A stretch of DNA of 64,000 bases from an uncultured Planctomycetales bacterium. Lineage in GTDB: Bacteria; Planctomycetota; Phycisphaerae; SM23-33; FEN-1343. The stretch is from the NCBI GenBank assembly GCA_964535025.1, contig CAZHRW010000149.1, positions 11,932-75,931 of the forward strand, in the 5' to 3' direction. Shown one piece after another: positions 1,941-62,740 of the stretch; positions within the stretch are counted from its first letter, which is position 1, and each line of letters begins with the position of its first letter. The notes below the pieces were generated by a model. It saw only the letters and a program-made list of their open reading frames with translations, was not told the origin of the DNA and ran no database searches. A program made the translations under genes and the position numbers.

Positions 1941-3311
1941 TCACGATCGGTTCCCAAGGCGGCGCATCAGCGCCACGGAGGCATGGATTGCACGGCGGAA
2001 CTGGTCGAGGGCGAATCGCTCGTTGGGGCTGTGCACGCGGTCGCTCGGCAGGGACAAGCCCATGATCAGCGGGTCGACGCCGAGGTGCCGGTGGAAGTGG
2101 ATGGCCACGGGGATGCTCGCCCCGCAGCGGACCAGGACGCAAGGCGCCTCGAACGCCTCGCTGATCGCCCCGCGGGCCGCCTCGACGGCCGGCGCGTCCG
2201 GGTCGGCCAGCCAGGGGTCCTGCGCCGTCAGCAGGTCCACCGTCAGGCCGATCCCCGCCGGGCAGTGCTTGCGCAGATGGGCTTCGAGCTGCCGGGCGAC
2301 GCGCTCGGCCTGCTGGTCGCAGACCAACCGGCAGGACAATTTGGCCTTCGCCCAGGCGGGGATGACCGTCTTGCAGCCCTCGCCCATGTACCCGCCCCAC
2401 AGGCCGTGGCAATCCAGCGTGGGCAGCGCCCAGAGCCGTTCCAGCGGCGGCACGTCTTCGGGGCCGGCCAGGGTCGTCGCGCCGATCTCGGCCCGCCAGG
2501 CGTCGGCGTCGAAGGCCAGACCCTCCCACATGGACCGCTCGGCCTCGCCGGGGGGGCGGACGTCGTTGTAGAACTCTTCGACGGCCACTCGCCCGTCGTC
2601 GTCGTGCAGGGAGGCGACCAGGGCGGCCAGGGCGTTGAGCGGGTTGGGCGCCAGCCCGCCGCACAGGCCGCTGTGCAGATCGTGGTCGGGACCGGTCGCC
2701 GTCACCTCGATGTAGGTCAGTCCCCGCAGGGCGTAGGTCAGCGATGGGGTTTCGTCGTCGTAGAAGGCCCCGTCGGCGATGGCGATGGCGTCGCAGGCGA
2801 GTCGTTCGGTGTTGTCGGCGACGAACGGGCCGAGCGTGGGCGAGCCGACCTCCTCTTCGCCCTCGAAGAGGCACTTGATGTTGACCGGCAGGGCCTCCCC
2901 GGCCGCCCGAAAGGCCTCGATGGCCGCGATCCACGCGAACACCGGCCCCTTGTCGTCGCTGGCGCCGCGGGCGACCAGGTGGCCGTCGGCGACGGTCGGA
3001 TCGAACGGGTCGGTCTGCCACAACTCCAGCGGGTCGGGCGGCTGGACGTCGTAATGGCCGTATACCAGCAGCGTGGGCTTGTCAGGGTCCGCGGGTCCGG
3101 CAGCCACCACGGCCGGACGGCCGAGCGGTTCGATCGTCGCTTCCAGCCCCGCCGCCTCGAGGCGGGCGGCCAGCCATTCGGCGCAGGCACGGCTGTCAGG
3201 GGCGTGGTCGGTCTGGGCGGAGATGCTCGGGAACCGGCAGAAGGCCTTCAGCGACTCGACGGACGCGTCGAATCGCGTCTCGACCTGGGATCGGACGGCG
3301 TCGTTGGGCAT
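1941..3311 (-). CDS. M20 family metallopeptidase (dipeptidase / ArgE-DapE-CPG2 superfamily)
   Basis: LLVYGHYDVQP...GASDDKG...FEGEEEVGS are M20 metal-binding motifs. A GAGGAGAA RBS precedes the ATG. Confidence 0.85.
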   Translation of the reverse strand: MPNDAVRSQVETRFDASVESLKAFCRFPSISAQTDHAPDSRACAEWLAARLEAAGLEATIEPLGRPAVVAAGPADPDKPTLLVYGHYDVQPPDPLELWQTDPFDPTVADGHLVARGASDDKGPVFAWIAAIEAFRAAGEALPVNIKCLFEGEEEVGSPTLGPFVADNTERLACDAIAIADGAFYDDETPSLTYALRGLTYIEVTATGPDHDLHSGLCGGLAPNPLNALAALVASLHDDDGRVAVEEFYNDVRPPGEAERSMWEGLAFDADAWRAEIGATTLAGPEDVPPLERLWALPTLDCHGLWGGYMGEGCKTVIPAWAKAKLSCRLVCDQQAERVARQLEAHLRKHCPAGIGLTVDLLTAQDPWLADPDAPAVEAARGAISEAFEAPCVLVRCGASIPVAIHFHRHLGVDPLIMGLSLPSDRVHSPNERFALDQFRRAIHASVALMRRLGNRS

Positions 3312-3444: not shown

Positions 3445-4536
3445 ATGGAGGTGATTGGAGCGTTTATCGGCGGTGTGGTGCTCGGCGCGGCGGTCGTGGC
3501 GGTCGTCACGCTGCTGTACGGGCGCACCGCCGGCAAGGCCGCCGAGGCGCGGTTCCGCGATGCGTTCGCGGCGCTGTCGGCCGACGCCCTGTCGGCCAAC
3601 AGCGAACGCTTCCTTACGCTGGCCCGCGAACGGCTGGCGGCCCAGACGGCGGCCGGGTCGGCCGAACTGGAGAAGCGCAAGGAGATGATCGACCGCTCCC
3701 TCCAGCAGGTGGGCGAGCGTCTCGAAGCGGTCCGCGACCTGTCGGCGAAGCTCGAAAGCGCCCGCAAGGAGGATCACGGTAAGCTCACCCAGCAGGTGGC
3801 CGAGTCGATCCGCCAGGTAGCCGAGCTGCGCGACACCACCGACCAGTTGCGCGCCGCCCTCGCCCATCCCCAGCAGCGGGGCAAGTGGGGCGAGCGGATG
3901 GCCGACGACATCCTCCAGCGGGCGGGGATGATCGAGGGGGTCAACTACACCAAGCAGGAAACCATGACCGACGGGCGCCGTCCGGACTTCACGTTCCTGC
4001 TGGGCAACGGCGTCAAGCTCAACATGGACGTCAAGTTCCCCCTGGACAACTACCTGCGACACCTGGAGGGCGACGACGACTCGGCGGCCCTGCAGGGGTT
4101 CCTCACCGATGTTCGCACACAGATCCGGGCGATCTCCACTCGCGAGTACATCAACCCCACCGACGGCACGGCGGATTTCGCGTTGATGTTCATCCCCAAC
4201 GAGCGGGTCTTTGCCTTCATTCAGGACCTCGATCATGCCCTGCTCAGCGAGGCCGCCCAGCGGCGGGTGCTGCTGGTGGGGCCGCTGAGTCTGCTGGCGG
4301 TGCTCCACGTCGTCCGCCAGGCCGCCGAGGTGGCCAACCTCTCCCGCCAGACCTCCGATGCGCTGCAACTGGTCGCCGAATTCACCCGCCAGTGGGGCAA
4401 GTTCACCGAAGAGCTCGACAAGCTCGGCGGTCGTCTCGACGCGGCCGTCAAGCAATACGAGACGATCCGCACCACGCGCGCCAACGTCCTGGAACGTCCG
4501 CTCCGGCGGCTGGAGGATCTGCGGGCGCAAGGGTAG
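3445..4536 (+). CDS. rmuC: DNA recombination protein RmuC
   Basis: N-terminal TM anchor followed by a long coiled-coil region and a C-terminal RmuC domain (FALMFIPNERVFAFI...LLVGPLSLLAVL). Start at the ATG after GGGAGAGAGG; the track start at 3421 is a TTG. Confidence 0.85.
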   Translation: MEVIGAFIGGVVLGAAVVAVVTLLYGRTAGKAAEARFRDAFAALSADALSANSERFLTLARERLAAQTAAGSAELEKRKEMIDRSLQQVGERLEAVRDLSAKLESARKEDHGKLTQQVAESIRQVAELRDTTDQLRAALAHPQQRGKWGERMADDILQRAGMIEGVNYTKQETMTDGRRPDFTFLLGNGVKLNMDVKFPLDNYLRHLEGDDDSAALQGFLTDVRTQIRAISTREYINPTDGTADFALMFIPNERVFAFIQDLDHALLSEAAQRRVLLVGPLSLLAVLHVVRQAAEVANLSRQTSDALQLVAEFTRQWGKFTEELDKLGGRLDAAVKQYETIRTTRANVLERPLRRLEDLRAQG

Positions 4537-4649: not shown

Positions 4650-5975
4650 ATGGTCGCCATTGCGCTGGACATTCTGTATGCATTGGGCCTGGTGGCTACC
4701 GGTCCGATGTGGCTGACGCGGATGATCCGCCACGGGCGCTATCGCACGGGCTGGGCCCAGCGGTTCGGACGGGCGCCAATCTGCGGCGACGGCGGGCCGG
4801 TGATCTGGATCCACGCGGTGAGCCTCGGCGAGGTGAACGGCATCCGCGCGCTGATCGACGAGTTGGCCGCCCGGGTGCCCAATCACCGGATCGTCATCTC
4901 CTCGACGACGGACACCGGTATGGCCCGGGCCGAAGCGCTGTTCGCGCCCGCTCGGGAGGTCTTCCGGTTTCCGCTGGACTTCTCCTGGGCGGTTCGCCGG
5001 GCGTTCGATCGCGTCGACCCGGCGCTGGTGGTCCTGATGGAGGGGGAGATCTGGCCGAACTTCCTCGCGCGCGCCAATCGTCGTCGCGTCCCGGTTGTGG
5101 TGGTCAACGGGCGGATCAGCGAGAACAAGGGCTACCCCCGCTACCGGAAAATCCGGCCGCTGGTCAAGCGGCTGTTCAACCGGGTGACGGTGCTGGCGGT
5201 GCAGGACGAGGTGTACGCCGAGCGGTTCATCGACCTGGGGGCCGATCCCGAGCGGGTGACGGTGACGGGCATGATGAAATTCGACACCGTCGACACCGCC
5301 GCCTCCGTCGCCGGGGCCGACGCCCTGGCCGCGGCGTTGGGGTTGGGCGCCGGCGATCGGCTCGTTGTCGCCGGCGGGACCGGGCCCGGCGAAGAGGCGC
5401 TCCTGCTGGAGGTGTTCGCCGCCCTCCGCGCCGGGGGACACGCGGATGAGCGGACGTTTCTGGCGATCGTGCCCCGCAAGCCCGAACGGTTCGACGAGGT
5501 CGCCCGCCTGATCGACAAGGCCGGCCTCGACCTCGTCCGCCGCACCGAACGGCCGGACGGCAGCACCGGCACGCTGGCCGATGGGGCCGTGATCCTCGGC
5601 GACACGATGGGGGAGCTGCGCAAGTTCTACAGCCTGGCCGACGCCGTCTTCGTCGGCCGTTCCCTGGTGCCGATGGGCGGTTCGGACATGCTCGAGGCGG
5701 CGGCGCTGGGCAAACCGGTGGCCTTCGGCCCGCACGTGTTCAACTTTCCCCAGGCGCCGGATCTGCTGGCCGCCGGCGGCGCCGTCCAGGTGGCCGACGG
5801 CGAGGAACTGGCCCGTACGCTTGCCCGGTGGTTGGCCGACGGGGATGTCGCGGCCGAACTGGGCCGGCGGGCGCGGGCGTATATCCGCAGCCGCCAGGGC
5901 GCCACGGTACGAAACGCGGCACTCATCCGCGACCTGCTCGACGGGCGCCAAACGAGCGCCGCGACGGGCGAGTGA
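4650..5975 (+). CDS. waaA: 3-deoxy-D-manno-octulosonic acid (Kdo) transferase
   Basis: WIHAVSLGEV...VISSTTDTG is the KdtA/WaaA N-terminal glycosyltransferase signature. C-terminal GT-B fold. Confidence 0.85.
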   Translation: MVAIALDILYALGLVATGPMWLTRMIRHGRYRTGWAQRFGRAPICGDGGPVIWIHAVSLGEVNGIRALIDELAARVPNHRIVISSTTDTGMARAEALFAPAREVFRFPLDFSWAVRRAFDRVDPALVVLMEGEIWPNFLARANRRRVPVVVVNGRISENKGYPRYRKIRPLVKRLFNRVTVLAVQDEVYAERFIDLGADPERVTVTGMMKFDTVDTAASVAGADALAAALGLGAGDRLVVAGGTGPGEEALLLEVFAALRAGGHADERTFLAIVPRKPERFDEVARLIDKAGLDLVRRTERPDGSTGTLADGAVILGDTMGELRKFYSLADAVFVGRSLVPMGGSDMLEAAALGKPVAFGPHVFNFPQAPDLLAAGGAVQVADGEELARTLARWLADGDVAAELGRRARAYIRSRQGATVRNAALIRDLLDGRQTSAATGE

Positions 5976-7281: not shown

Positions 7282-8943
7282 GTGGCAACGATTCACGTCA
7301 TCCAGGGCCCCGACAAGGGGCGCACGCATGATCTGCCGGCGCGGGAGACGCGCGTCGGCCGAGAGGCCGAGGATCTGCAGTTGAACGATCCGACCGTCTC
7401 GCGGGAACACGTGCGCCTGTTCCCGCAGAACGGCGAGTGGATCATCGAGGATCTCGGCTCGGCCAACGGCACGTACGTCAACGGCGTGCGGCTGCGACGG
7501 ACGCTGCCCCTGCGCCAGGGCGACCAGGTCCGCGTGGGCAGCACGCTGCTGGTCTTCGGCGGGTCGGGCCCGGCCCCCGTCACCGACGGGGCGCTCGACA
7601 TCGACGAAGACGGCCGCCTCGTCGATTCAGCCATCATCACCTCCGTACCGGGCAACGCCGATTCGGTGATCATGCCCACGCCCGAGGCCGGCGACCGCGC
7701 CATTGGCAACCTCCGCCACCTGTACAACCTGATCGGCACCATCAGCACCATCTTTGACGCCGAACTGCTGGCCAATCGCGTGCTCGACCACGTCTGTGAG
7801 CTGTTCCACCCCGATCGCGGCTTCGTGGTGCTCATCGCCCCGGACGGCAAACTCACCCCCATCGCCGTCCGCTACGAAGAGGGCGAGAAAACCGACGACA
7901 CCGTGCCCATCTCGCGCACCATCGTCAACCACGTGGTGGAACACCAGGTGGGCGTGCTGTGCTCGAACGCCATGGTCGACAAACGCTTTACCAAGGGTCA
8001 CTCCGTCCACGACTTCGGCATCCAGTCGGTGCTGTGCGTGCCCATCGTCGGGCGGGAGCGGATCCTCGGCGTGATCCACGTCGACTCGGCCGTCTCGAAT
8101 CTGACTTACTCCACCGAACAGCTCCGCCTGCTGACGGCGATCGGCTACCAGACGGGCCTGGCATTGGAGAACGTGCAACTGTACGAGGCGTCGGTCACCT
8201 CCGAGCGGCTCGCCGCCGTCGGCGAGGCCGTCGCGTCGCTGAGCCATTCGATCAAGAACATCCTCCAGGCCCTCCAGGCCGGCGCCGACGTCGTCGACAT
8301 GGCGGTCGATCACGGCCAACTCGACCAGGCCCGCGAAGCCTGGCCCATCGTCACCCGGAACCTCGAGCGGATCAATTCGCTGATCGTCAACATGCTCGCC
8401 TTCTCGAAGCAGCGCCAGCCGCTGCTGCAGTCGATCTCGATCAACCATGTGGTTACCGAGTGCGTCGATCTGCTCACCGCACGGGCCGACGAGCGGCGCG
8501 TGGCGCTTTTGGCCGACCTGGGCGACGTTCCGCCCATCCCCGCCGACGTCGAAGGCCTGCACCAGGCGCTGGTCAACCTGGTGACCAACGCCCTCGACGT
8601 CGTCCCCGACGGCACCGGCGCCGTGACCATCCGCACCACCTTCGACACCATGGAGCGCCTGGCCCGCATCGCCGTCGCCGACAACGGCCCGGGGATCGAC
8701 GCGGCCACGCGGGCGCGGATCTTCGAGCCGTTCTTCTCCACCAAGGGTCAGAAGGGCACCGGGCTGGGTCTGGCGGTCACCCGCAAGGTCGTCGAGGAGC
8801 ACGGTGGCCGCATCGAAGTCGACGCCGCTCCCGGTCGCGGCTCGATCTTCACCATCGTCCTGCCCAGTACGCCCCCCGAATTTGCCGGCGCTCAGGACAC
8901 CCAGGGCCCCGCCTGGCCCAAGCGTTACCACCCCAAGCGCTAG
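7282..8943 (+). CDS. Sensor histidine kinase with N-terminal FHA domain and central GAF domain (FHA-GAF-HisKA-HATPase_c); no receiver domain
   Basis: FHA: ...VGREAEDLQLNDPTVSREHVRL...GSANGTYVNG. GAF in the middle. H-box: SLSHSIKNILQAL. HATPase_c G-boxes: DNGPGID...GTGLGLAV. GTG start. Confidence 0.8.
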   Translation: MATIHVIQGPDKGRTHDLPARETRVGREAEDLQLNDPTVSREHVRLFPQNGEWIIEDLGSANGTYVNGVRLRRTLPLRQGDQVRVGSTLLVFGGSGPAPVTDGALDIDEDGRLVDSAIITSVPGNADSVIMPTPEAGDRAIGNLRHLYNLIGTISTIFDAELLANRVLDHVCELFHPDRGFVVLIAPDGKLTPIAVRYEEGEKTDDTVPISRTIVNHVVEHQVGVLCSNAMVDKRFTKGHSVHDFGIQSVLCVPIVGRERILGVIHVDSAVSNLTYSTEQLRLLTAIGYQTGLALENVQLYEASVTSERLAAVGEAVASLSHSIKNILQALQAGADVVDMAVDHGQLDQAREAWPIVTRNLERINSLIVNMLAFSKQRQPLLQSISINHVVTECVDLLTARADERRVALLADLGDVPPIPADVEGLHQALVNLVTNALDVVPDGTGAVTIRTTFDTMERLARIAVADNGPGIDAATRARIFEPFFSTKGQKGTGLGLAVTRKVVEEHGGRIEVDAAPGRGSIFTIVLPSTPPEFAGAQDTQGPAWPKRYHPKR

Positions 8944-9623: not shown

Positions 9624-10577
9624 TCAACGGCCCAGCGCGCCGCAGGCCGCGTCAAGGTACGCCGCGTCGTCGGCATCGGGCGCCACGGCGACATCAGGTA
9701 CGAGGCCGTCCGTGCCGGTGCGGCCGAGGGCGGGGAAATGGTAGTCGCCGACCTTCCGGACGACCATCCGCCCGGCGGTGTCGGGGGCCGGGCGGAGGAT
9801 CTCCAGCGCCCCGGGCGTCGGCCGGCCGACCAGCGTCGCGCGCCCGGCGTTCCGCAGGGCGCCGGCCAGCAGTTCCGAGCCATCCCGCGTGCCACCATCG
9901 ATCAGGACCGCCAGGGGCAGCGACGTCATCTCCGGACGCGACGCTCGCACGACGGCCGCCCGGCCATGCATCCGCGAGCCCCACAGCGTCGCCGGCGGCG
10001 CCGTGAACAGCTCGGCCACCTCGCGGACGGTGGGGACCGGCCCGCCGACACTGTTGCGCAGGTCCAGGCACAGGCCCGCCGCCCCCGCGCCGGTCAACTG
10101 CGCCACGGCGTCACGCACGGCCGTGGGGGTGTGGCGGCTGAAGCTCCTGATGCGGATCACGCCGATCCCGTCTGTCAGACGGCTGGACACGCCGCCGATG
10201 ACCACGATCTCCCGCCGCAGCTTGAGCGTCCGTCGCGACCCGTCGGCCGCGATCGCCTCGACGGTCACTTCGCTGCCGGCCGGCCCGGCCAGCCGCCGGG
10301 CGATCTGCTCGGGCGGTTCGTCGGCCACGGAGGTCGCGTCCACGGCGGCGACGATCTCGCCGATCGCCAGGTCGGCCGCTTCGGCGGGGCTGCCACCGAC
10401 GACCCAGTCGATCCGCCCACCCCGCGGATCGCGGCTCAGCACAAGGCCGACACCGGCAATCGGCGTATCGTCCGCCGAGGGTTTGACAAGGTCGGCCGTC
10501 CGGGATGTGCACGCCGACAGCAGGCCGGCGATCAACAGGCACGCGAGGACGAACGGGATTGGATGGGGTTCACGCAT
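9624..10577 (-). CDS. S41 family C-terminal processing peptidase (PDZ plus tail-specific protease domain), lipoprotein
   Basis: Lipobox LLSAC. PDZ-like segment. S41 catalytic region: VLIDGGTRDGSELLAGALRNAGRATLVG. Confidence 0.8.
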   Translation of the reverse strand: MREPHPIPFVLACLLIAGLLSACTSRTADLVKPSADDTPIAGVGLVLSRDPRGGRIDWVVGGSPAEAADLAIGEIVAAVDATSVADEPPEQIARRLAGPAGSEVTVEAIAADGSRRTLKLRREIVVIGGVSSRLTDGIGVIRIRSFSRHTPTAVRDAVAQLTGAGAAGLCLDLRNSVGGPVPTVREVAELFTAPPATLWGSRMHGRAAVVRASRPEMTSLPLAVLIDGGTRDGSELLAGALRNAGRATLVGRPTPGALEILRPAPDTAGRMVVRKVGDYHFPALGRTGTDGLVPDVAVAPDADDAAYLDAACGALGR

Positions 10578-11699: not shown

Positions 11700-12863
11700 T
11701 CACTCGGCCGCCGTGTCGGGGCGGATCTCGTCGTCGGTCAGGTAGCAGGCGGGGTCGTCGGCCCAGCGATCGCCGGTGGCGGCCTCGGCGCGGGCGCGGA
11801 AGTTGCCGTTGCACACCTCCAGCCAGCGGCACCGTCGACAGCGGCCGGTGAGGCGCGTTTTGCGGTTGCGCAGCTCCGCCAGCAGGGGGATCGACTCGTC
11901 GGTCCAGATGGCGCTGAAGGGGCGTTGGCGGATGTTGCCGAGCGTCTGCGTCCGCCAGAACGGGTCGGGATGGACCGCCCCGTCCCAGCTCACGCAGGCG
12001 ATCCGCTCGCCGGAGGCGTTGCCGCGGTTGAGTTGCAGCAGATGCATGGCGTGGCGGGCCTGGTCGGGATCCTCCCGCGCGAGGCGCTGGACGAGATACG
12101 GGCCGTCGGCGTGGTTGTCGACGGTGAGCACCTCGATCCGCCGCCCGCGGGCGTGGAGGTCGCGGGTGCGGTCGATGATCGTATCGACGGCGCGGCGTGT
12201 GGCGGCGGCGTCGAGGGCGTCGTCCCTCAGGGCGGCGCCGCGGCCGGCGGCGACGAGGTGGTAGAAGCAGATTCGGGGCACTCCCTCGCGTTCGATGAGA
12301 TCGAAGATGGCGGGCAGTTCGTCGACGTTGTGGCGCGTCATCGTCAGGCGGACGCCCACCTTGACGCCGGCGGCGCGGCAGTGGCGGATGCCTTCCAGGG
12401 CCGCGGCGAACGCGCCGCTCTGGCCGCGGAAGCGATCGTGCGTGTCTTCCAGGCCGTCCAGGCTCACGCCGACGTACCCGAGGGCGAGTCGGCGGAAGCG
12501 TTCGGCGAGGGTGGCCGTGATGAACGTTCCGTTCGTGGAGACCACCGCGCGGAGGCCGACGTGGCGTGCGTGGTCGATCAGGTCGAGCAGGTCGGCCCGC
12601 AGCAGCGGTTCGCCGCCGGAGAAGAGGACCACCGGCGCGCCCATGGCGGCCAGGTCGTCCAGGAGGGCCTTGGCCTCGTCGGTGGTCAACTCGTCGGGGG
12701 CGGCCGCGTCGGTCGATCCGCTGTAGCAGTGGGCGCATCGCAGGTTGCACCGGCGCGTGCAGTTGAACACCACCACCGGCCGCGGCGGGCCGTCGAACCG
12801 CCGATAGCGCAGGCGGTCCGATGCCTCGGCGGTTCCGCAGCACAACCTGGATATCCCGACCAT
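11700..12863 (-). CDS. Radical SAM/SPASM-domain protein, paralog of the adjacent gene (NirJ/AhbC/AhbD-like)
   Basis: CNLRCAHC cluster. C-terminal CRRCRWLEVCNGNFRARA SPASM-type cysteines. AGGAGAAG RBS. Start lies 8 bp from the downstream paralog. Confidence 0.8.
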   Translation of the reverse strand: MVGISRLCCGTAEASDRLRYRRFDGPPRPVVVFNCTRRCNLRCAHCYSGSTDAAAPDELTTDEAKALLDDLAAMGAPVVLFSGGEPLLRADLLDLIDHARHVGLRAVVSTNGTFITATLAERFRRLALGYVGVSLDGLEDTHDRFRGQSGAFAAALEGIRHCRAAGVKVGVRLTMTRHNVDELPAIFDLIEREGVPRICFYHLVAAGRGAALRDDALDAAATRRAVDTIIDRTRDLHARGRRIEVLTVDNHADGPYLVQRLAREDPDQARHAMHLLQLNRGNASGERIACVSWDGAVHPDPFWRTQTLGNIRQRPFSAIWTDESIPLLAELRNRKTRLTGRCRRCRWLEVCNGNFRARAEAATGDRWADDPACYLTDDEIRPDTAAE

Positions 12864-17364: not shown

Positions 17365-17515
17365 TAAACCCGAAATCCCAAACTCGAAACACGAAACAAA
17401 CTCGAAACGGCCAAACGGAAAAGCACCAAACGACAGGGCCTGGTCGTTTTGAAGTTTGGCGTCCTGATCCGTTTGGGATTTGTTTCGGATTTCGTGCTTC
17501 GGATTTCGGATTTCT
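17365..17515. repeat. AT-rich imperfect dyad-symmetric element built from CGAAA/GAAAC pentamer repeats around a central hairpin (AACGACAGGGCCTGGTCGTT)
   Basis: Left arm ...CCGAAATCCCAAACTCGAAACACGAAACAAACTCGAAACGG...; right arm ...CCGTTTGGGATTTGTTTCGGATTTCGTGCTTCGGATTTCGGATTTC. Lies between the sulfatase stop and the gcvR-like start. Confidence 0.5.
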
Positions 17516-27502: not shown

Positions 27503-27715
27503 GGTGCGCTCCGAAGTGTCAGGCGTCCTTGCATGCCTGATCCTGTCGGCGAGCAGGAGAGCAGTTGAGCAGGAGACCGCAGGTGAGCCGTTTGTGGCTT
27601 CCGTGTCATAACGTGCCTTCCATAGAGGGCGTGTCGTTCCTACTGTTCACCTGATCTCCTGTTCACCTGCTCTGTAGCGTTTTGGCTTTTGATTCTTGGA
27701 ATCAAAGCCAAAACG

Positions 27716-27976
27716 CTACGTGCCGGTCCAGAAGGGGTTGGCGAACAGCAGGATCATCGAGACGACGAAGCAGTAGATGGCCGTCGACTCGACCATCGCC
27801 AGGCCGACGAACAGCGTCCGCGTGATCCGCCCGGCTTCGTCGGGCTGCTGGGCGATGGCCCGCAGCGCCTCGGCCAGGCCCCGCCCCTCGCCGAGGGCCG
27901 GGCCGATCGAGCCGATGCCGATCGTGATCCCGGCGGTGAAGATCGATACCATGGCGATCAGTGATTGTGGATCCAT
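27716..27976 (-). CDS. atpE: ATP synthase c subunit carrying the Na+-binding ligand set
   Basis: SIGPALGEG...AQQPDE...VESTAIY...ANPF aligns to the I. tartaricus c subunit. Gln in helix 1 and Glu-Ser-Thr / Tyr in helix 2 are all present. Confidence 0.9.
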   Translation of the reverse strand: MDPQSLIAMVSIFTAGITIGIGSIGPALGEGRGLAEALRAIAQQPDEAGRITRTLFVGLAMVESTAIYCFVVSMILLFANPFWTGT

Positions 27977-29748: not shown

Positions 29749-29925
29749 CCCGGCTAAATTCTGTCGCCCCTTTGGGGCTTTGTGCGTAAACGGCGCTCCT
29801 GTCCGGGGACTGGCGCCCCCGGCTAAACTCTGTTGCCCCTTTCGGGGCTTTGTGCGTAAACGGCGCTCCTGTCCGGGGGCTGGCGCCCCCGGCTAAACTC
29901 TGTCGCCCCTTTGGGGCTTTGTCCC
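29749..29925. repeat. 70-bp tandem repeat (about 2.5 copies) inside the 388-bp atpD-atpC spacer; each unit contains CCGGGG(G/A)CTGGCGCCCCCGG
   Basis: Units begin at 29749, 29819 and 29889 (period 70, over 90% identical). Followed at 29956-29975 by the inverted partner CCGGGGGCGCCAGCCCCCGG. Extra direct repeats CAGCCCCGGAGGGGCGG lie at about 29930 and about 29998. Confidence 0.85.
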
Positions 29926-30109
29926 CGTCAGCCCCGGAGGGGCGGCGGAATTTTGCCGGGGGCGCCAGCCCCCGGAAAACGGCTTACGAACACGAGCCAG
30001 CCCCGGAGGGGCGGCATACGTTCCAAGGGGGCGTCAGCCCCCGCCCATCGTCTCCTTTCGTCGCCGCACGCTTGCGTCAAGGGCGGCCCGGGCGCGCGCG
30101 CCGGCTGAA

Positions 30110-32287: not shown

Positions 32288-32722
32288 ATGAGCCAGTTAC
32301 GCACATTGGGCTTCTTCGAAGCGGTGATCCAGACGACCCAGGAATGGATGGTCGAGCTGACCGAGCTGACCGGCCGCGCCGACGAACACAAGGCCTGGCA
32401 GATGCTCCGGGCCGTGCTGCACGTCCTGCGGGACCGGATGACCGTCGCCCACAGCGCCCACCTCAGCGCGCAACTGCCGACGATCATCCGGGGCCTGTAC
32501 TTCGAGGGCTGGCGGCCGGCCGAGCAGCCGCTCCGCCTGCGCACCCGCGCCGAGTTCATCACGGCGGTCAGCGACGAGTTGTCCGGCCACCCGGAGATCG
32601 ACCCCAACCAGGCCGTCGCCTGCGTCTTCCGGCTCCTGGCCCACCGCATCACCGGCGGCGAGCTGGACAAGATCAAGCAGTCGCTCCAGCCGGAGCTGCG
32701 GGCGATGTGGCCGACGGCGTGA
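32288..32722 (+). CDS. DUF2267 domain protein
   Basis: C-terminal GELDKIKQSLQPELRAMWP pattern typical of DUF2267. GGGAG RBS. Confidence 0.6.
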   Translation: MSQLRTLGFFEAVIQTTQEWMVELTELTGRADEHKAWQMLRAVLHVLRDRMTVAHSAHLSAQLPTIIRGLYFEGWRPAEQPLRLRTRAEFITAVSDELSGHPEIDPNQAVACVFRLLAHRITGGELDKIKQSLQPELRAMWPTA

Positions 32723-32855
32723 ACGGCGAATATCGAATATCGAACAAGGAATATCGAATATCGAAGTAGGCTGTCGCCCCAGGGCGCGTCAGCGGTCGTT
32801 GGCCGTTTGACTTCGACATTCGATATTCCTTGTTCAGTATTCGATATTCGCCGTT
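32722..32855. repeat. Long AT-rich imperfect inverted repeat (45-bp arms, about 42/45 complementary, 44-nt loop) built from GAATATCGAA units; candidate bidirectional terminator or processing hairpin
   Basis: Left arm AACGGCGAATATCGAATATCGAACAAGGAATATCGAATATCGAAG; right arm CTTCGACATTCGATATTCCTTGTTCAGTATTCGATATTCGCCGTT. Lies between the convergent DUF2267 and MarC genes. Confidence 0.6.
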
Positions 32856-33463: not shown

Positions 33464-33548
33464 CGTTCTTTTGAGACCTGAGACGTGAGACCTGAGGCCT
33501 GAGGTACGGCGAGGGCACCCCAAGCTTCACGTCTCAGGCCTGTCTTCC

Positions 33549-34685: not shown

Positions 34686-34789
34686 GATCGCCTTTCCTCG
34701 AAAGCCCGCCATTGTCCGCGGGCGCCCCGGCGTTTGCGCGCACGGCGATTCTACAAGGTGGGCCGCCGGCCGCAAGGGGGCGCCGGACC

Positions 34790-35626
34790 TTACCGGGCCG
34801 TCCGTCGTCCGACGCTGTCCGACCGGTCCGACCGGTCCGACTTGTCCGACGCGTCCGACTTGTCCGACTTGTCCGACGCGTCTGGTGGGTCCGACGCCTC
34901 CCGGATCCCCTTACACTGGGGATACCCCGAGCAGCCCCAGAATGCCTTGCCGGCGTGAGGGCCCTGCTTGGCGGTGCGCCGGCGCATCGGCTTGCCGCAC
35001 AGCGGGCAGGCGGGCGCATCCGCGGCGGCGTGGCGCGCTTCGGTCCGGGCGGCATGGAGGCGCTCGGTGAAGCCGCCCTGGTCGAGGAACTGGCGGCTCT
35101 GGGCTTCGATCTGCCGCCGCAGGAGATAGGCGGCCTGGTTCACGGCGCACAGCATGGCGTTCGCGGCCAGTTCCGCCTCGGCCTCGGCGACGAACGCCGC
35201 CAGGCCCGCCAGGCCCGTCAGGCGGATCGTCCCCGGCGTCGCCGGCGGGAGGTCGGGCGCGGCATCGTGTTTGAGCCGTTCCCGCATGGCGAGGGCCTGG
35301 GGCGACTCCTTGGGCCAGACCCGCAGGCCGTGCTGGAGGAGAAAAGTCCGATAGTCCTTGAGCAGTTCATCGGAGAGGCTGGCTCGCGCGACATTCGTGA
35401 GCTTCATCTCGGCCTTGCGGCTCGTGGCCGCGGCGCCGATGGCCTCGCTGATATTCCGCACCCCGCTCCGCGCCGCCTGAACCATCTGATCGTGCGTCCG
35501 CGACCGCTTCTCGATGAAACGATCGCAGAACACGACCGTCGCATCGTAAACGGCCTCGGCCACCTTGTAACTGCGAAGCCGCTCATAGCCCCCGTGCGGC
35601 AAGAGGACGGACTCATCGCTGGCCAT
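34790..35626 (-). CDS. Four-helix-bundle protein (Avd / 23S rRNA IVS family) fused to a helical suffix domain, a topoisomerase-type C4 zinc ribbon and a C-terminal Ser-Asp repeat tail
   Basis: N-terminus YKVAEAVYDATVVFCDRFIEKRSRTHDQMVQAARSGVRNISEAIG matches the four-helix-bundle family. CPLCGKPMRRRTAKQGPHAGKAFWGCSGYPQC is a Topo-I-type Zn ribbon. The tail SDPPDASDKSDKSDASDKSDRSDRSD is encoded by the GTCCGAC array. ATG start follows AGGGGAGCA; the track start is a TTG. Confidence 0.7.
   Translation of the reverse strand: MASDESVLLPHGGYERLRSYKVAEAVYDATVVFCDRFIEKRSRTHDQMVQAARSGVRNISEAIGAAATSRKAEMKLTNVARASLSDELLKDYRTFLLQHGLRVWPKESPQALAMRERLKHDAAPDLPPATPGTIRLTGLAGLAAFVAEAEAELAANAMLCAVNQAAYLLRRQIEAQSRQFLDQGGFTERLHAARTEARHAAADAPACPLCGKPMRRRTAKQGPHAGKAFWGCSGYPQCKGIREASDPPDASDKSDKSDASDKSDRSDRSDSVGRRTAR
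34807..34895. repeat. Array C: nine GTCCGAC heptamers at 9-10 bp phasing (inside the 3' end of the CDS; encodes the SD-x repeats)
   Basis: Counted directly: GTCCGAC gct GTCCGAC cg GTCCGAC cg GTCCGAC tt ... . Confidence 0.9.
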
Positions 35627-35671
35627 GGTAGTGCTCCCCTGCGTTTCCAAAGGTCAAGGACGGATCGACCT

Positions 35672-35753
35672 GTCGGACGGCGTCAGACGGGTCGGACAGG
35701 TCAGATGGGTCTGACGGTGTCGGACAGGTCAGACAGGTCCGACAATGTCGGAC
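35672..35753. repeat. Array A: nine GTC(N)GAC palindromic heptamers (mostly GTCGGAC/GTCAGAC) at 9-10 bp phasing, upstream of the four-helix-bundle gene
   Basis: Counted directly; opposite orientation bias to arrays B and C. Confidence 0.9.
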
Positions 35754-35861
35754 GATTTGGGCTCACGCGGCCCATCGGATATTGGACCCCTGCGGGGGAC
35801 ACCTGTCAAGCCGCGCCATAGCGGAAAAACCGCCCCCGAATCGTCCACGCGAGTCTCTGCT

Positions 35862-36016
35862 GTCCGACGCTGTCTGACCGGTCGGACGAGTCCGACCTGT
35901 CCGACGCCGTCTGACGCGTCAGACGAGTCCGACCCGTCCGACGCCGTCTGAGCCGTCAGACGAGTCCGACCCGTCCGACGCTGTCTGACCTGTCTGACGA
36001 GTCCGACCTGTCCGAC
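35862..36016. repeat. Array B: seventeen GTC(N)GAC heptamers with a regular 3-2-2-2 nt spacer pattern (37-bp supra-unit; one 36-bp block duplicated)
   Basis: Counted directly. The central base N is A, C, G or T. Not frame-preserving (supra-period 37). Confidence 0.9.
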
Positions 36017-36099
36017 GCCGTCCGTGCGGCGCGGCCGCCACCAATGGCTATAATAGCCAAATAAGGCCGCGCGTTCACGCTCGCGAGGGCGCGATGAAC

Positions 36100-36470
36100 A
36101 AAATGAAAGCAAACCACAACAAAATACGGCCGGCGCTCAATAAAATGAAGGCAGCGTTAAACAATGTGCACGACCGGCCCAATAAACTGACATATTCCCC
36201 CAATAAAAGAAAGCCCCGAGTCGCCCCGTGCGCGCCCCGGGGGTCTGGGTAAGCTGGGTAAAATATCCGAGAATTCGGGTTTTATGCCGGATGCAAGGCG
36301 CGCGCATCTATGTGGGGACAGGATATGAGAAAAAACCCCTCGGACGCACCCTCCGGCGTTAAGCTGGGCAAGCTGGGGGCTCTGCGGCGTCGCGGCGCCC
36401 GGAGAATTCGGGTTTTATGCCGTTAAACTGGGTAAGATACCGGAGAATTCCGGTTTTATGCCGTCTCGAT
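36100..36470. repeat. AT-rich noncoding island with several direct-repeat families: CAATAAA-type repeats, AAGCTGGGTAA-type repeats, and three copies of a 23-bp element CCG(R)GAATTC(S)GGTTTTATGCCG (short hairpin plus T-tract)
   Basis: Copies at about 36267-36289, 36398-36422 and 36439-36463. Local GC is far below the 70% background. No ORF with protein-like composition. Confidence 0.7.
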
Positions 36471-36727
36471 GCCGTCAAAACGGCCGAAAACGAGGAGCAT
36501 TTTCGAGTATCCTGTCACTGAATGCGGGGGAGCTGGACGGGGCCGACCGGGGCGGCGGGGCCGTCCGGGTCTCGGCGCCGCTCGAAGGCCCCGGCACGGC
36601 CGGCCGGGCAGAAGGGCCGCCGCGGGCGGGCCCTTGCATTGGACGGGCGTTGAGGGTACGAGGGGCCTTCACCCAACGAAGGGCCGCGACGGCGGCCGGG
36701 GCGGACCCCGGGCGCGGCGCGGCTAAC

Positions 36728-37660
36728 ATGAGAAAAACCATGGACTTCCCCGCCCTCGACGACGCCACGCGCCTCGCCCGGCTCACACCGCCGGCCGGGG
36801 CGGTCGAGATGGTGCTCGACACCGACACGTACAATGAGATCGACGATCAGTTCGCCGTGGCCTACGCGCTCCTGTCGCCCGAGCGGCTCAACGTGCGGGC
36901 CCTGTATGCCGCCCCGTTCCACAACAACCGCTCCAGCGGTCCAGGTGACGGTATGATCAAGAGTTACGAGGAGATCGGCCGCCTGCTCGAGCGGATGGGA
37001 CGCTCGGGCGACGGCCTGGTTTTCCGCGGCTCCGAGCGGTACCTGGGCGGCGCCGACGAGCCCGTCGACAGCGACGCGGCGAGGGACCTGGTGGCTCGGG
37101 GGATGGCCGATCGGGACGGACCGCTGTATGTGGTTGCGATCGGGGCGATTACGAACGTCGCCTCGGCGCTGCTGATCGAGCCGCGCCTCGTCGAGCGGGT
37201 CGTCGTCGTCTGGCTGGGCGGTCAGCCGCACTACTGGCACACGGCCCGCGAGTTCAACCTCAGCCAGGACCTCCACGCCGCACGCGTTATCCTTGGATCC
37301 GGCGTACCTTTCGGTCACATCCCCTGCACGCACGTGGCCCAGTTGCTCCGCACGACGGCCGGCGAGTTGAGGACGGACATGGGCGATGCCGGGCCGGTCG
37401 GTAAGTTCCTTCTGCAGCGTTTCTTGGAATATCGCGAGGACCTCTTCGCGTGGGCGAAGGAGATCTGGGACCTCGCGCCGATCGCGTGGCTGGTCAATCC
37501 GTCGTGGCTGCCATCGACGGTGGTTCACACCCCGCGGCTGACCGACCAGCACACCTGGTCGCCCGACCCGTTCGCCCCGCTGATGCGCGTGGCGATCGAC
37601 TGCAACCGCAACGCGATCTTCGCCGACGTGTTCGGCAAGCTCAACGCGGCGGAAACCTAA
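36728..37660 (+). CDS. Nucleoside hydrolase (IUNH family)
   Basis: VLDTDTYNEIDDQFA is the DxDxxxDD aspartate cluster of inosine-uridine nucleoside hydrolases. Unusually long upstream noncoding region, about 600 bp. Confidence 0.75.
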   Translation: MRKTMDFPALDDATRLARLTPPAGAVEMVLDTDTYNEIDDQFAVAYALLSPERLNVRALYAAPFHNNRSSGPGDGMIKSYEEIGRLLERMGRSGDGLVFRGSERYLGGADEPVDSDAARDLVARGMADRDGPLYVVAIGAITNVASALLIEPRLVERVVVVWLGGQPHYWHTAREFNLSQDLHAARVILGSGVPFGHIPCTHVAQLLRTTAGELRTDMGDAGPVGKFLLQRFLEYREDLFAWAKEIWDLAPIAWLVNPSWLPSTVVHTPRLTDQHTWSPDPFAPLMRVAIDCNRNAIFADVFGKLNAAET

Positions 37661-60836: not shown

Positions 60837-62675
60837 ATGTGCGGTATCGTCGGATACATCGGACGCAGGAAGGCGCAAGACATTCTAGTAGAGGGACTTA
60901 AGCGCCTGGAGTACCGCGGCTACGACTCGGCCGGTCTCTGCGCCGTCGCCGACGGCGCCCTGACGACCGCCAAGTGCCCCGGGCGGATCGCCAATCTCGA
61001 ACAGCGCCTCGCCGAGACGCCTGCGCTCGCCGACGCCACCATCGGTATCGCCCACACCCGCTGGGCTACGCACGGCTCGCCGACCGAGGCGAACGCCCAC
61101 CCGCACCTCAGCGACGACGGATGCATCTCGCTGGTTCATAACGGTATCATCGAAAACTACTTGGCGCTCAAGCAGTGGCTTCAGTCCAAGGGCCGCACCT
61201 TCGCCAGCGAGACCGATTCGGAGGTGCTGTCGAACCTGATCGCCGAGTTCTACGCCTCGACGGGCGACTTCGTCGAGGCCGTCCGGACGGCCCTGCACGA
61301 GGTGACCGGCACGTACGGGATCGCGGTGCTCTGTCGCGACGAGCCGGATACGATGGTCACGGCCCGGCGGGGCAGCCCGCTGATCGTGGGGATCGGCCAG
61401 GATGAATACATCGTCGCCTCCGACGCCGCGGCGATCGTCGCCCACACCGCCAACGTGGTGTATCTCCACGACAACGAGATGGCGGTCATCACCGGCGACC
61501 GGATGCGGACGATCACGATCGACAACGTCCCGACCACCAAGGACGTCGAGCTGATCGAGTACAGCCTCGAGGAGATCGCCCTGGGCGGGTTCGAGCACTT
61601 CATGCTCAAGGAGATCTTCGAGCAGCCCCAGTCGATTCGCGACTGCCTGCGCGGGCGACTGGACATGCGGGAATCGCGGGTGCAGTTGGGCGGCATCGAG
61701 TCGGTCGCCCGCGAGTTGATCCGGACCCGACGGTTCATCTTCACCGCCTGCGGCACCGCCTGGCACGCCGGACTGATCGGGGAGTTTCTCTTCGAGGATC
61801 TCGCCCGGATCCCGGCCGAGACGGAGTACGCCTCGGAGTTTCGCTACCGCAACCCGATCATCGACGGCGGGACGGCCGTGGTGGCGATCAGCCAGTCGGG
61901 GGAGACCGCCGACACGCTGGCGGCCCTGCGGGAGGCGCGGGACAAGGGCGCCCTGGCGCTGGGGATCGTCAACGCCGTCGGTTCGACCATCGCCCGCGAG
62001 ACCGACGCCGGCGTCTACCTTCACGCCGGGCCCGAGATCGGCGTGGCCTCGACCAAGGCTTTCACCTGCCAGGTCGCCGTCGAGACGATGCTCGCGCTGT
62101 ATCTCGGCCGGCGGAAGTTCATGTCGCAGGAGGTTACCACCCGCTACATGGAAGCCCTGGCCGAGATCCCCGACAAGATCGAGCGAGTCCTCGCCCAGAG
62201 CGACCGGATCCGCGACGTGGTCTCCCGCGTGGCCGGCCGGGAGAACTGGCTGTTCCTCGGGCGGGGCTACAACTACCCCGTCGCCCTGGAAGGGGCGCTG
62301 AAGCTCAAGGAGATCAGCTACATCCATGCCGAGGGGCTGCCCGCCGCCGAGATGAAGCACGGGCCGATCGCCCTGATCCACGAGGGCATGCCGGTGGTGT
62401 TCATCGCCCCGCGGTGCGGGGTGTATGACAAGATCATCTCGAACATCGAGGAGGTCCGCGCCCGCGGCGGGTACGTCATCGCCGTGGCGACCGAGGGCAA
62501 CGACGAGATCCGCCACTATGCCGACGCGGTGTTCTACATCCCCGATTGTCCCCAGGCCCTCCAGCCGCTCCTGACGGTCATCCCGCTGCAACTGCTGGCC
62601 TACCAGGCCGCGGTCCTGCGCGGGTGCAACGTCGATAAGCCGCGGAATCTGGCCAAGAGCGTGACCGTGGAGTGA
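60837..62675 (+). CDS. glmS: Glutamine--fructose-6-phosphate aminotransferase (isomerising)
   Basis: MCGIVGY N-terminal nucleophile and two SIS domains. AGGAGAG RBS. Confidence 0.95.
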   Translation: MCGIVGYIGRRKAQDILVEGLKRLEYRGYDSAGLCAVADGALTTAKCPGRIANLEQRLAETPALADATIGIAHTRWATHGSPTEANAHPHLSDDGCISLVHNGIIENYLALKQWLQSKGRTFASETDSEVLSNLIAEFYASTGDFVEAVRTALHEVTGTYGIAVLCRDEPDTMVTARRGSPLIVGIGQDEYIVASDAAAIVAHTANVVYLHDNEMAVITGDRMRTITIDNVPTTKDVELIEYSLEEIALGGFEHFMLKEIFEQPQSIRDCLRGRLDMRESRVQLGGIESVARELIRTRRFIFTACGTAWHAGLIGEFLFEDLARIPAETEYASEFRYRNPIIDGGTAVVAISQSGETADTLAALREARDKGALALGIVNAVGSTIARETDAGVYLHAGPEIGVASTKAFTCQVAVETMLALYLGRRKFMSQEVTTRYMEALAEIPDKIERVLAQSDRIRDVVSRVAGRENWLFLGRGYNYPVALEGALKLKEISYIHAEGLPAAEMKHGPIALIHEGMPVVFIAPRCGVYDKIISNIEEVRARGGYVIAVATEGNDEIRHYADAVFYIPDCPQALQPLLTVIPLQLLAYQAAVLRGCNVDKPRNLAKSVTVE

Positions 62676-62696: not shown

Positions 62697-62723
62697 ATCC
62701 GACGGATCAGTCTGATCCGACGG
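62697..62723. terminator. Hairpin (13-bp stem with one mismatch, TCCGACGGATCAG / CTGATCCGACGGA) between convergent glmS and GatB/YqeY genes; candidate transcription stop
   Basis: Read from the sequence. A T-tract lies 5' of the stem on the plus strand, so not a canonical intrinsic terminator for either direction. Confidence 0.35.
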
Positions 62724-62740
62724 ATCCGACCGATTACTCC

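Follow-up and report, generated by a model that had tools for sequence, protein, structure and literature searches.

Phased GTCNGAC arrays accompany a four-helix-bundle/zinc-ribbon gene in many bacterial phyla

Introduction

Repetitive extragenic palindromic (REP) sequences are linked to the RAYT (tnpA-REP) proteins by the co-variation of protein clade and repeat type. Intervening sequences (IVSs) that carry an S23p open reading frame (ORF) are bounded by self-complementary repeats, reside in transcribed host DNA, are acquired horizontally and are regarded as selfish (PMC4990558). A further pairing of a gene with short repeats is described here from a 64-kb stretch of DNA (the window; contig CAZHRW010000149.1 of an uncultured Planctomycetales bacterium, positions 11,932 to 75,931), in which a gene for a four-helix-bundle/zinc-ribbon protein is preceded by two phased arrays of the palindromic heptamer GTCNGAC and contains a third at its 3′ end. 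The gene and its arrays form a conserved module found across phyla, and the arrays of the window are one copy of a previously undescribed gene–repeat partnership that spans many bacterial phyla.

In its logic, the module resembles IVSs as well as REP-RAYT systems. It shares with the IVSs of Coxiella burnetii and Leptospira the protein fold and family, and the arrangement of a small ORF bounded by self-complementary repeats. An IVS element, whose site is helix 25 or 45 in 23S rRNA, was nonetheless rejected because the window has no rRNA gene; the only matches in an Rfam scan of the window at gathering thresholds were to Acido-Lenti-1. The flanks are also unlike those of an IVS: in place of one inverted-repeat pair there are tandem 9-mer arrays, mostly direct across loci, in which a heptamer is invariant. 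The module protein, in addition, contains the suffix domain and the zinc ribbon and is subject to strong purifying selection, whereas the Coxiella ORF is decaying. The likeness to REP and REPIN-RAYT systems is that a single gene has its own short, hairpin-prone repeats on either side, that copies of these also occur away from the gene, and that the type of repeat is clade-specific. A REP-RAYT system was rejected because no HUH/Y1 transposase family is among the Pfam and NCBIfam hits of the window protein, and the tandem arrays of 9–10 bp units with mostly direct flanks differ from the 20–40 bp palindromes of REPs and REPINs.

A preliminary description of the locus, made from the sequence alone, had considered an iteron-like binding array. 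Iterons and phased operator arrays may be compared with the present arrays in that direct sites, about one helical turn apart, lie beside the gene for the protein presumed to bind them, and around what would be its promoter. The part of this proposal that ties the repeat to the gene stands. A strict iteron was rejected, as the unit is 9–10 bp long compared with 17–22 bp, and neither a Rep family match nor an origin was found; unlike iterons, the arrays also reach into the coding DNA of the module gene and of its neighbours. As with the Rickettsia palindromic elements, a palindromic repeat is tolerated in ORFs (here HsdR, HsdS and CheR) with the frame kept and an innocuous peptide produced, but the present repeats are tandem 9-mers of variable copy number associated with one gene family and not an element of 100–150 bp. 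Copy number differs between near-identical genes, as it does in variable number tandem repeats and contingency loci, but the unit is a multiple of three and causes no frame-shift switching, and the core, unlike that of ordinary microsatellites, is conserved across phyla. A CRISPR array had already been discounted in the preliminary description and is rejected here on the same grounds, i.e., cores of 7 bp with spacers of 2–3 nt, compared with repeats of 23–55 bp and unique spacers of similar length. Staphylococcal SD repeats of the Sdr/Clf type were likewise rejected: the peptide unit here is the tripeptide SDx, present in 3–12 units, and the window protein has no adhesin, signal or anchor domain, its Pfam families being only those of the four-helix bundle and the zinc ribbon. 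A search of open-access papers and bioRxiv found nothing on the 4helix_suffix family or on GTCNGAC arrays, and GTCNGAC seems to figure there as single transcription-factor operator sites in unrelated contexts.

Organisation of the arrays in the window

The window has 46 exact GTCNGAC sites, compared with 32.5 ± 5.3 in dinucleotide-preserving shuffles, and 33 of the 46 lie within 34807–36016, where about 0.6 would be expected per 1.2 kb. They are arranged in three arrays. The tail array (34807–34895, minus strand) lies within the 3′ end of the gene and consists of nine exact units and a degenerate GTCTGGT at 34880–34886. The proximal upstream array (35672–35753) is non-coding, ends 45 nt from the ATG, and has eight exact units plus GTCAGAT at 35700; read on the gene strand, its central base is mostly a pyrimidine. 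The distal upstream array (35862–36016), also non-coding, has 16 exact units plus GTCTGAG at 35946. The total is 35 when these two one-mismatch units are included, and the 9 + 9 + 17 copies counted previously are accordingly made up of 33 exact units and two with a single mismatch. No further GTCNGAC array of three or more units is present elsewhere in the 64-kb window.

Steps between units are 9 bp, with periodic steps of 10 bp, which agrees with the 9–10 bp phasing reported in the preliminary description. The distal array runs through the series 10-9-9-9 four times over, and Tandem Repeats Finder (TRF) gives a period of 37, 4.4 copies and 89% matches at 35860–36022, so that both the 3-2-2-2 spacer rhythm and the 37-bp supra-unit noted earlier are recovered. 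Reading of the ORF at 34790–35626 (minus strand) also bore out the earlier placement of one array inside the 3′ end of the gene, where it codes for an SD-x tail, and of two arrays in the non-coding DNA upstream: the tail array is in the frame xxG-TCN-GAC and is translated as a C-terminal SDx tail, ...SDKSDKSDASDKSDRSDRSD... The proximal array is inverted relative to both of the others. Its complementarity to the distal array in inverted alignment is 79% and its identity to that array in direct alignment 68%, as expected from the opposite orientation bias described for the upstream arrays, and the distal and tail arrays are 78% identical in direct orientation. The inverted-repeat signal is modest though real, because the palindromic core makes any two arrays about 65% complementary by construction.

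Arrays at homologous loci

Loci of gene homologs or of array matches (numbered with the prefix L) were compared with the window. Of 36 loci with a protein identity of at least 60%, 30 carry an array of four or more units, either inside the gene or no more than 500 bp away. Array-bearing homolog loci come from Planctomycetota, Lentisphaerota, Verrucomicrobiota, Kiritimatiellia, Armatimonadota, Desulfobacterota and Acidobacteriota. The tie between the repeat and the adjacent zinc-ribbon gene, suspected in the preliminary description, is borne out by the presence of arrays with homologs in other phyla and by the co-variation of repeat type with protein clade.

In other phyla, arrays of the form GTCNGAC-NN sit immediately before the start codon and also within the 3′ end of the gene or beyond it. 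The upstream array ends 11–58 nt from the start codon in most loci. Within the homologs, arrays occupy permissive sites, namely the N-terminus, an internal loop, the linker that precedes the zinc ribbon and the C-terminal tail, and there they keep the frame xxG-TCN-GAC with strict 9-bp steps, except for three short arrays flagged in another frame. A collagen-like G-x-T reading (GGT-CNG-ACN) was rejected for the gene arrays, since those of the four-helix-bundle/suffix genes are in the SD frame bar these three. Steps of 10 bp occur mainly in non-coding arrays, such as the upstream arrays of the window and an array downstream of the L043 gene. Non-coding arrays can be long (17 units in the window and 19 in L016), and downstream arrays are present in L021, L030 and L043.

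The gene neighbourhood is not constant among loci, but two settings recur. One is between or beside type I restriction genes (L005, L007 and L011), and the other is between a CheB-CheR-PAS ORF and a PAS-histidine-kinase ORF (L015, L016 and L020). In the window, the neighbours are GH172 and nucleoside hydrolase genes. Across 82 loci, ATGA stop/start overlaps with long neighbouring ORFs were seen 10 times upstream and 11 times downstream. SDx insertions also occur, in frame, in proteins encoded near the gene: in HsdR (L007 and L011), in CheR/PAS linkers, and at the C-terminus of presumed HsdS ORFs, which were recognised by eye and have no Pfam hit. No close uninterrupted ortholog of the CheBR-PAS-kinase was found with a chimeric query, which matched only a protein (P0349) that shows the two halves can be joined in a single polypeptide.

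The insertions in the type I restriction R-subunit genes adjoining the four-helix-bundle gene are GTCNGAC arrays of 6–8 units (SDK/SDQ...), at 2135–2206 in L007 and at about 995–1050 in L011.

Repeat type and protein clade

Proteins were clustered on their N-terminal 195 residues, and TRF was run on all loci. In more distant homologs the repeat units are different. GTCNGAC (type 1) predominates in 60 of the 64 loci of protein clusters 1 and 2, while all 17 loci of cluster 3 have 9-mers of the form (G)ATCNG[AT]C and only one has type 1 (Fisher p = 3e-16 for repeat type against protein cluster). Verrucomicrobiota, Desulfobacterota and Acidobacteriota each appear in more than one cluster; because the same phyla fall in different clusters, the repeat type tracks the protein and not the host. 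In a sister pair of loci without a zinc ribbon (L057 and L067), the gene is bordered on either side by hairpin elements built of 10-bp GTGGGACAAG or TCGGGACAAA units (GGGAC-type); those of L067 have a conserved loop. A homolog from Prevotella has four 9-bp TTCCTAGGA units just downstream, a single anecdote.

A related unit is present in the window as well. This is a ATCCGACGG array at 62697–62734, of about four units with a 9-bp period (TRF consensus, 75% matches), that directly follows the stop of the ORF at 60837–62675. ATCCGACGG is the ‘type 2’ unit of a distant protein clade, and the only copy of the gene in the window is type 1-associated.

Constraint on the repeat unit

Codon usage was examined in a set of repeats defined by peptide alone (57 loci, 323 units). 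All Ser codons of these repeats (279/279) are TCN, while in the rest of these genes the split is 52% TCN and 48% AGY. G ends 83% of the x codons in the repeats, compared with 35% of codons elsewhere, and Asp is encoded by GAC in 76% and 54%, respectively. When 28 flanking arrays (193 units) were sliced by period, the six core positions were 98–100% conserved, a figure somewhat inflated by the anchoring of array runs on exact cores, while the central base and the two spacer bases had entropies of 1.93–1.95 bits, which is near maximal. Compensatory palindrome variants were not seen among the 193 units. That the core is kept while three positions are saturated, and without compensatory variants, argues that specific bases are recognised, and not simply for slippage of recent date or a tendency to form hairpins.

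The repeat exists at the level of DNA, where selection maintains its core and its phasing is about one helical turn. Its translation into an SD tail is a tolerated by-product, because the intragenic DNA repeat sits in the Ser-Asp-x frame, the only benign one.

The enclosed gene and its upstream region

The gene at 34790–35626 (minus strand) encodes a protein of 278 aa, with an alternative TTG start at 35650. The order of domains is a four-helix bundle (23S rRNA IVS protein/S23p-like fold), a 4helix_suffix domain, a Topo-I/GRF-type C4 zinc ribbon and the disordered SDx tail. NCBIfam TIGR04258 (four helix bundle suffix) matches residues 151–199 with 69.1 bits (curated cut-off 40), and the Pfam family Zn_ribbon_Top1 matches with 33.8 bits (cut-off 32). 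Scores for TIGR02436 (22.5 against 24) and PF05635 (19.9 against 33.8) are below threshold, and by sequence the protein is no more than a divergent relative of these two families. An AlphaFold2 model (pLDDT 80) predicts an N-terminal helical bundle, the strands of the zinc ribbon and a disordered tail, with residues 248–272 of the tail predicted to be disordered. Foldseek searches with this model returned the PF05635-type bundles 2GSC and 2RLD with probabilities of 0.99–1.0 and TMt values up to 0.86, but with E-values of only 0.06–0.3; the zinc-ribbon part of the model resembles the GRF finger of NEIL3.

More than 8000 homologs were detected, the best 120 of which are 70–78% identical and come from several phyla, and at least 582 carriers were found in a scan of species-representative genomes. 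An alignment of 25 homologs has more than 100 invariant columns, and the zinc-ribbon cysteines C207, C210, C232 and C238 are invariant across the 25. PADLOC found no defence-system family for the window protein, and no record with exactly its sequence was found. Homologs were absent from the phage collection, and the plasmid collection yielded one, on a 568-kb Prevotella replicon. To our knowledge, four-helix-bundle proteins of the PF05635/‘S23p’/Avd-like kind are very common, and their function is known in diversity-generating retroelements only.

Upstream of the gene, a putative Shine-Dalgarno-like sequence (GGGGAG, 35634–35639, minus strand) can be read 7 nt before the ATG at 35626. The two upstream arrays are separated by a conserved, promoter-like block, GGCTTGACAGGTGTCCCC (35795–35812, minus strand). 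It holds a perfect −35-like TTGACA (35809–35804, minus strand), with CCAATAT following 17–19 nt later. Over 18 consecutive positions it is identical to the homologous spacer of L013, in non-coding DNA that has otherwise diverged. By pairing with each other, the proximal and distal arrays can enclose this block in a long imperfect hairpin (fold z about −12 on both strands), and strand asymmetry of folding, tried as a test for RNA function, was not found. No Rfam family matches at the arrays, either at gathering thresholds over the whole window or at an E-value threshold over 34700–36800.

Directly past the distal array, the DNA at 36025–36550 has a GC content of 0.53–0.59, compared with about 0.70 in its flanks, and a strong A skew. 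It includes two A-rich 21-mers, at 36091 and 36133, and three copies of a repeat of about 40 bp ending in GGAGAATTCGGGTTTTATGCCG, at 36250, 36383 and 36424, that is found nowhere else in the window. This A-skewed region has no Rfam match, and could be a separate small RNA, a cluster of binding sites or foreign DNA.

Length variation and cassette boundaries

Whole SDx units have been gained or lost at the linker and at the tail in proteins that are 89–91% identical to their cluster representative. The comparison of related loci for copy-number change, put forward in the preliminary description, thus found that genes more than 89% identical differ by whole units. The contingency locus suggested there is retained only in part: tail length does vary, but nine-base steps preserve the frame, and so this is a length polymorphism and not an on/off contingency switch.

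The flanking arrays of a locus have a common orientation (r = 0.60, permutation p = 0.004) and share exact 9-mers (32% within a locus compared with 8% between loci, p < 0.0002). Since both orientation and 9-mers are shared, the flanks are mostly direct repeats that are either in concerted evolution or derived from one array. A metagenome-assembled genome of Verrucomicrobia (L020) has a 133-nt direct repeat, at 2923–3055 and 3801–3933 (93% identity, 878 bp apart), which takes in array and linker together with the start codon and the first 18 codons of the gene, equivalent to 1.15 tandem cassette copies. Homology between the window and the closest relative (GCA_048622735.1), whose GH172 is 89% identical, breaks off some 100 nt upstream of GH172, where the tail array ends. 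Only one cassette junction is visible in this relative, and its contigs end about 260 bp upstream of GH172.

Two independent assemblies of a close relative (L293, 1–261; L294, 1–236) both stop at this distance of about 260 bp from GH172, some 160 bp past the limit of homology with the window, which suggests a repeat or coverage break there.

Arrays without the gene

A scan of metagenomes for arrays of five or more units gave at least 120 loci, and a homolog of the gene is present in 11 of 120 array loci among the matches listed. The preliminary description had regarded many scattered arrays as the mark of a generic minisatellite. Within the window there is none further, while most of the metagenome arrays of this size have no copy of the gene within 1 kb, and the repeat is therefore not exclusive to the gene. 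Some gene-less arrays are in-frame SDx insertions in other proteins, others are intergenic, and some take the form of hairpins. A Pfam scan of 135 ORFs flanking gene-less arrays gave no second gene family, no family being found in more than two members. The array pattern was also matched by 86 viral loci (L207–L292), none of which has the gene; many of these matches are collagen-like G-x-T repeats (GGT CCG ACC) in long ORFs and were rejected as unrelated. The excess of gene-less arrays is partly coincidental, because this GGT-CCG-ACC reading gives such collagen-like repeats. Extra type-1 arrays numbered six in 134 kb of the flanks of close homologs, compared with none in 197 kb for distant homologs.

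A 12.9-kb locus on a low-GC metagenome contig (L131), which has no four-helix-bundle gene, carries three copies of a hairpin of about 120 nt, at 4726–4777, 8533–8575 and 10298–10358. The apex of this hairpin is a GTCNGAC array in which the centre changes from purine to pyrimidine, and its base is an unrelated conserved inverted repeat.

Discussion

The description of a gene-plus-repeat module is much firmer than any model of binding. Our preferred explanation, put forward tentatively, is that the encoded protein reads the arrays as cis sites, which would serve autoregulation, recombination or both. Invariant GTC and GAC half-sites with a single free base between them, recurring at each helical turn, would suit recognition by a sequence-specific reader, and the best candidate is the protein encoded between the arrays, probably acting as an oligomer. 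We infer this from guilt by association together with clade co-variation, as in the REP-RAYT argument. In the window, binding to the arrays that flank the promoter-like block and the 5′ leader could bring about autoregulation. Across loci, the arrays may also be the boundary and recombination sequences of the module. Flanking arrays are usually direct repeats that share locus-specific 9-mers. Recombination of this kind would allow the cassette to be duplicated or lost, and could account for some of the gene-less arrays.

Several observations weigh against a protein reader. The window protein has no recognised sequence-specific dsDNA-binding domain, and Topo-I and GRF zinc ribbons bind single-stranded DNA (ssDNA). 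Among the matches listed, 77 metagenome arrays have 1 kb or more of flank on each side, and the gene lies within 1 kb of only 12 of them, so that about 85% lack it; for clearly non-coding arrays the count is 2 of 24; the neighbours of gene-less arrays are unrelated housekeeping genes. The flanks are inverted in the window, L005 and L014, and direct elsewhere. A scan of the array region of the window for the strict sigma-70 consensus and for terminators made no call, so that it is the conserved TTGACA block by itself that points to a putative promoter. The conservation of the core owes something to the anchoring noted above, and the co-variation of repeat and protein could be explained by plain co-inheritance of the two.

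This last point is taken furthest by the somewhat unlikely alternative of a selfish or neutral, slippage-prone minisatellite that is co-inherited with the gene in a horizontally moving cassette and has no protein reader. The self-complementary arrays would then have originated in the SD-coding tail, and unequal recombination and gene conversion would be responsible for their local spread. Recent amplification is indicated by runs of identical units and by the 37-bp higher-order repeat, single arrays fold back as ssDNA better than shuffles do (z −2.3 to −7.2), near-identical genes differ in array length, and 9-mers are common to flanking arrays; it would also suit such a minisatellite that most metagenome arrays are not beside the gene and that neighbouring HsdR, HsdS and CheR genes carry in-frame arrays. 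Against it, the core is 98–100% identical, in non-coding arrays too, while the free positions are near maximal entropy, which indicates that particular bases are kept by purifying selection. Were hairpin formation the sole constraint, compensatory palindromes would be permitted, and none were seen; the clade 3 core ATCNGAC is kept although it is not palindromic, and the 9–10 bp periodicity is constant while the unit sequence changes between clades. We consider unlikely a function at the level of RNA, where long duplexes or hairpins in transcripts, like the stems of 23S rRNA IVSs with S23p ORFs, would process or stabilise the mRNA of the inserted gene or insulate it from host transcripts, for example as RNase III sites or terminators. 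In its favour, the protein family is that of the IVS-encoded S23p (PMC4990558), the proximal and distal arrays fold strongly (z about −12 on both strands), true hairpin elements flank the gene in L057 and L067, the gene is often within operons with ATGA overlaps, and the window has further intergenic hairpins with tandem-repeat arms. A stem, however, needs complementarity and not an invariant heptamer, and the compensatory changes that it would allow are missing; the direct flanks of most loci could pair only through 3-bp half-sites, the distal array of the window lies upstream of the promoter-like block, and folding shows no strand asymmetry.

Selection on the peptide, as a disordered, acidic or phosphorylatable Ser-Asp-x linker and tail of which the non-coding arrays would be duplication debris, is decidedly improbable. 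SDx repeats do occur at the N-terminus, linker and tail of many homologs, type 1 and type 2 units each code for Ser-Asp, and the tail is predicted to be disordered, but AGY accounts for none of the 279 Ser codons, and sites that could vary synonymously are fixed (G before TCN, C in GAC). The long arrays are non-coding (17 units with 10-bp steps in the window and 19 units in L016), the 10-bp units of L057 and L067 cannot be coding repeats, and tail length is unconstrained. Short ORFs of the region with SD or GRT-like peptides could be taken for the remains of a decayed repeat-protein gene, as the preliminary description had allowed, or the upstream arrays for something CRISPR-like; either is exceedingly improbable. 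The 37-bp supra-unit of the distal array breaks every frame, arrays are non-coding at many loci, AGY Ser codons are absent, and synonymous positions of the SD frame are invariant, all of which contradict a decayed gene. Units of 7 bp with spacers of 2–3 nt do not suit a CRISPR array, and the protein matches no PADLOC defence family.

Beyond the reading of the arrays as cis sites of the encoded protein, a self-propagating gene–repeat system, similar to REPIN-RAYT in function but with a non-HUH protein, is conceivable, though we doubt it. The protein would recognise clade-specific arrays phased at 9–10 bp and promote their recombination or spread, and the cassette would enter and leave operons and inter-domain linkers, leaving frame-preserving Ser-Asp-x footprints. 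If the protein does mobilise or recombine the arrays, this would be a new class of repeat-associated recombination system.

The clade-specific partnership with a phased repeat provides the first concrete hypothesis for the 4helix_suffix subfamily, namely a nucleic-acid target with a defined core and spacing. It also accounts for an oddity of annotation, in that the Ser-Asp-x tails and insertions of restriction enzymes, sensor kinases and the module protein itself are a DNA-repeat phenomenon. The arrays may help to explain why many gene-bearing contigs are only 1–5 kb long.

Other repeats in the window

Four intergenic hairpins, at 17366–17513, 27551–27720, 32722–32855 and 33472–33545, have arms made up of locus-specific tandem repeats of 7–8 bp, the units being AAACNCG, GAGCAGGA, CGAATAT and TGAGACC, in that order. 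The CGAATAT hairpin (32722–32855) is 93% complementary and lies between convergent ORFs. A perfect hairpin lies at 27676–27720. The four hairpins with tandem arms may be terminators or processing sites with low-complexity arms.

The region 29749–29976 has two inverted matches to the Acido-Lenti-1 RNA, at 29873–29918 (plus strand) and 29930–29975 (minus strand). The pair lies within and beside a 70-bp tandem repeat of 2.5 copies.

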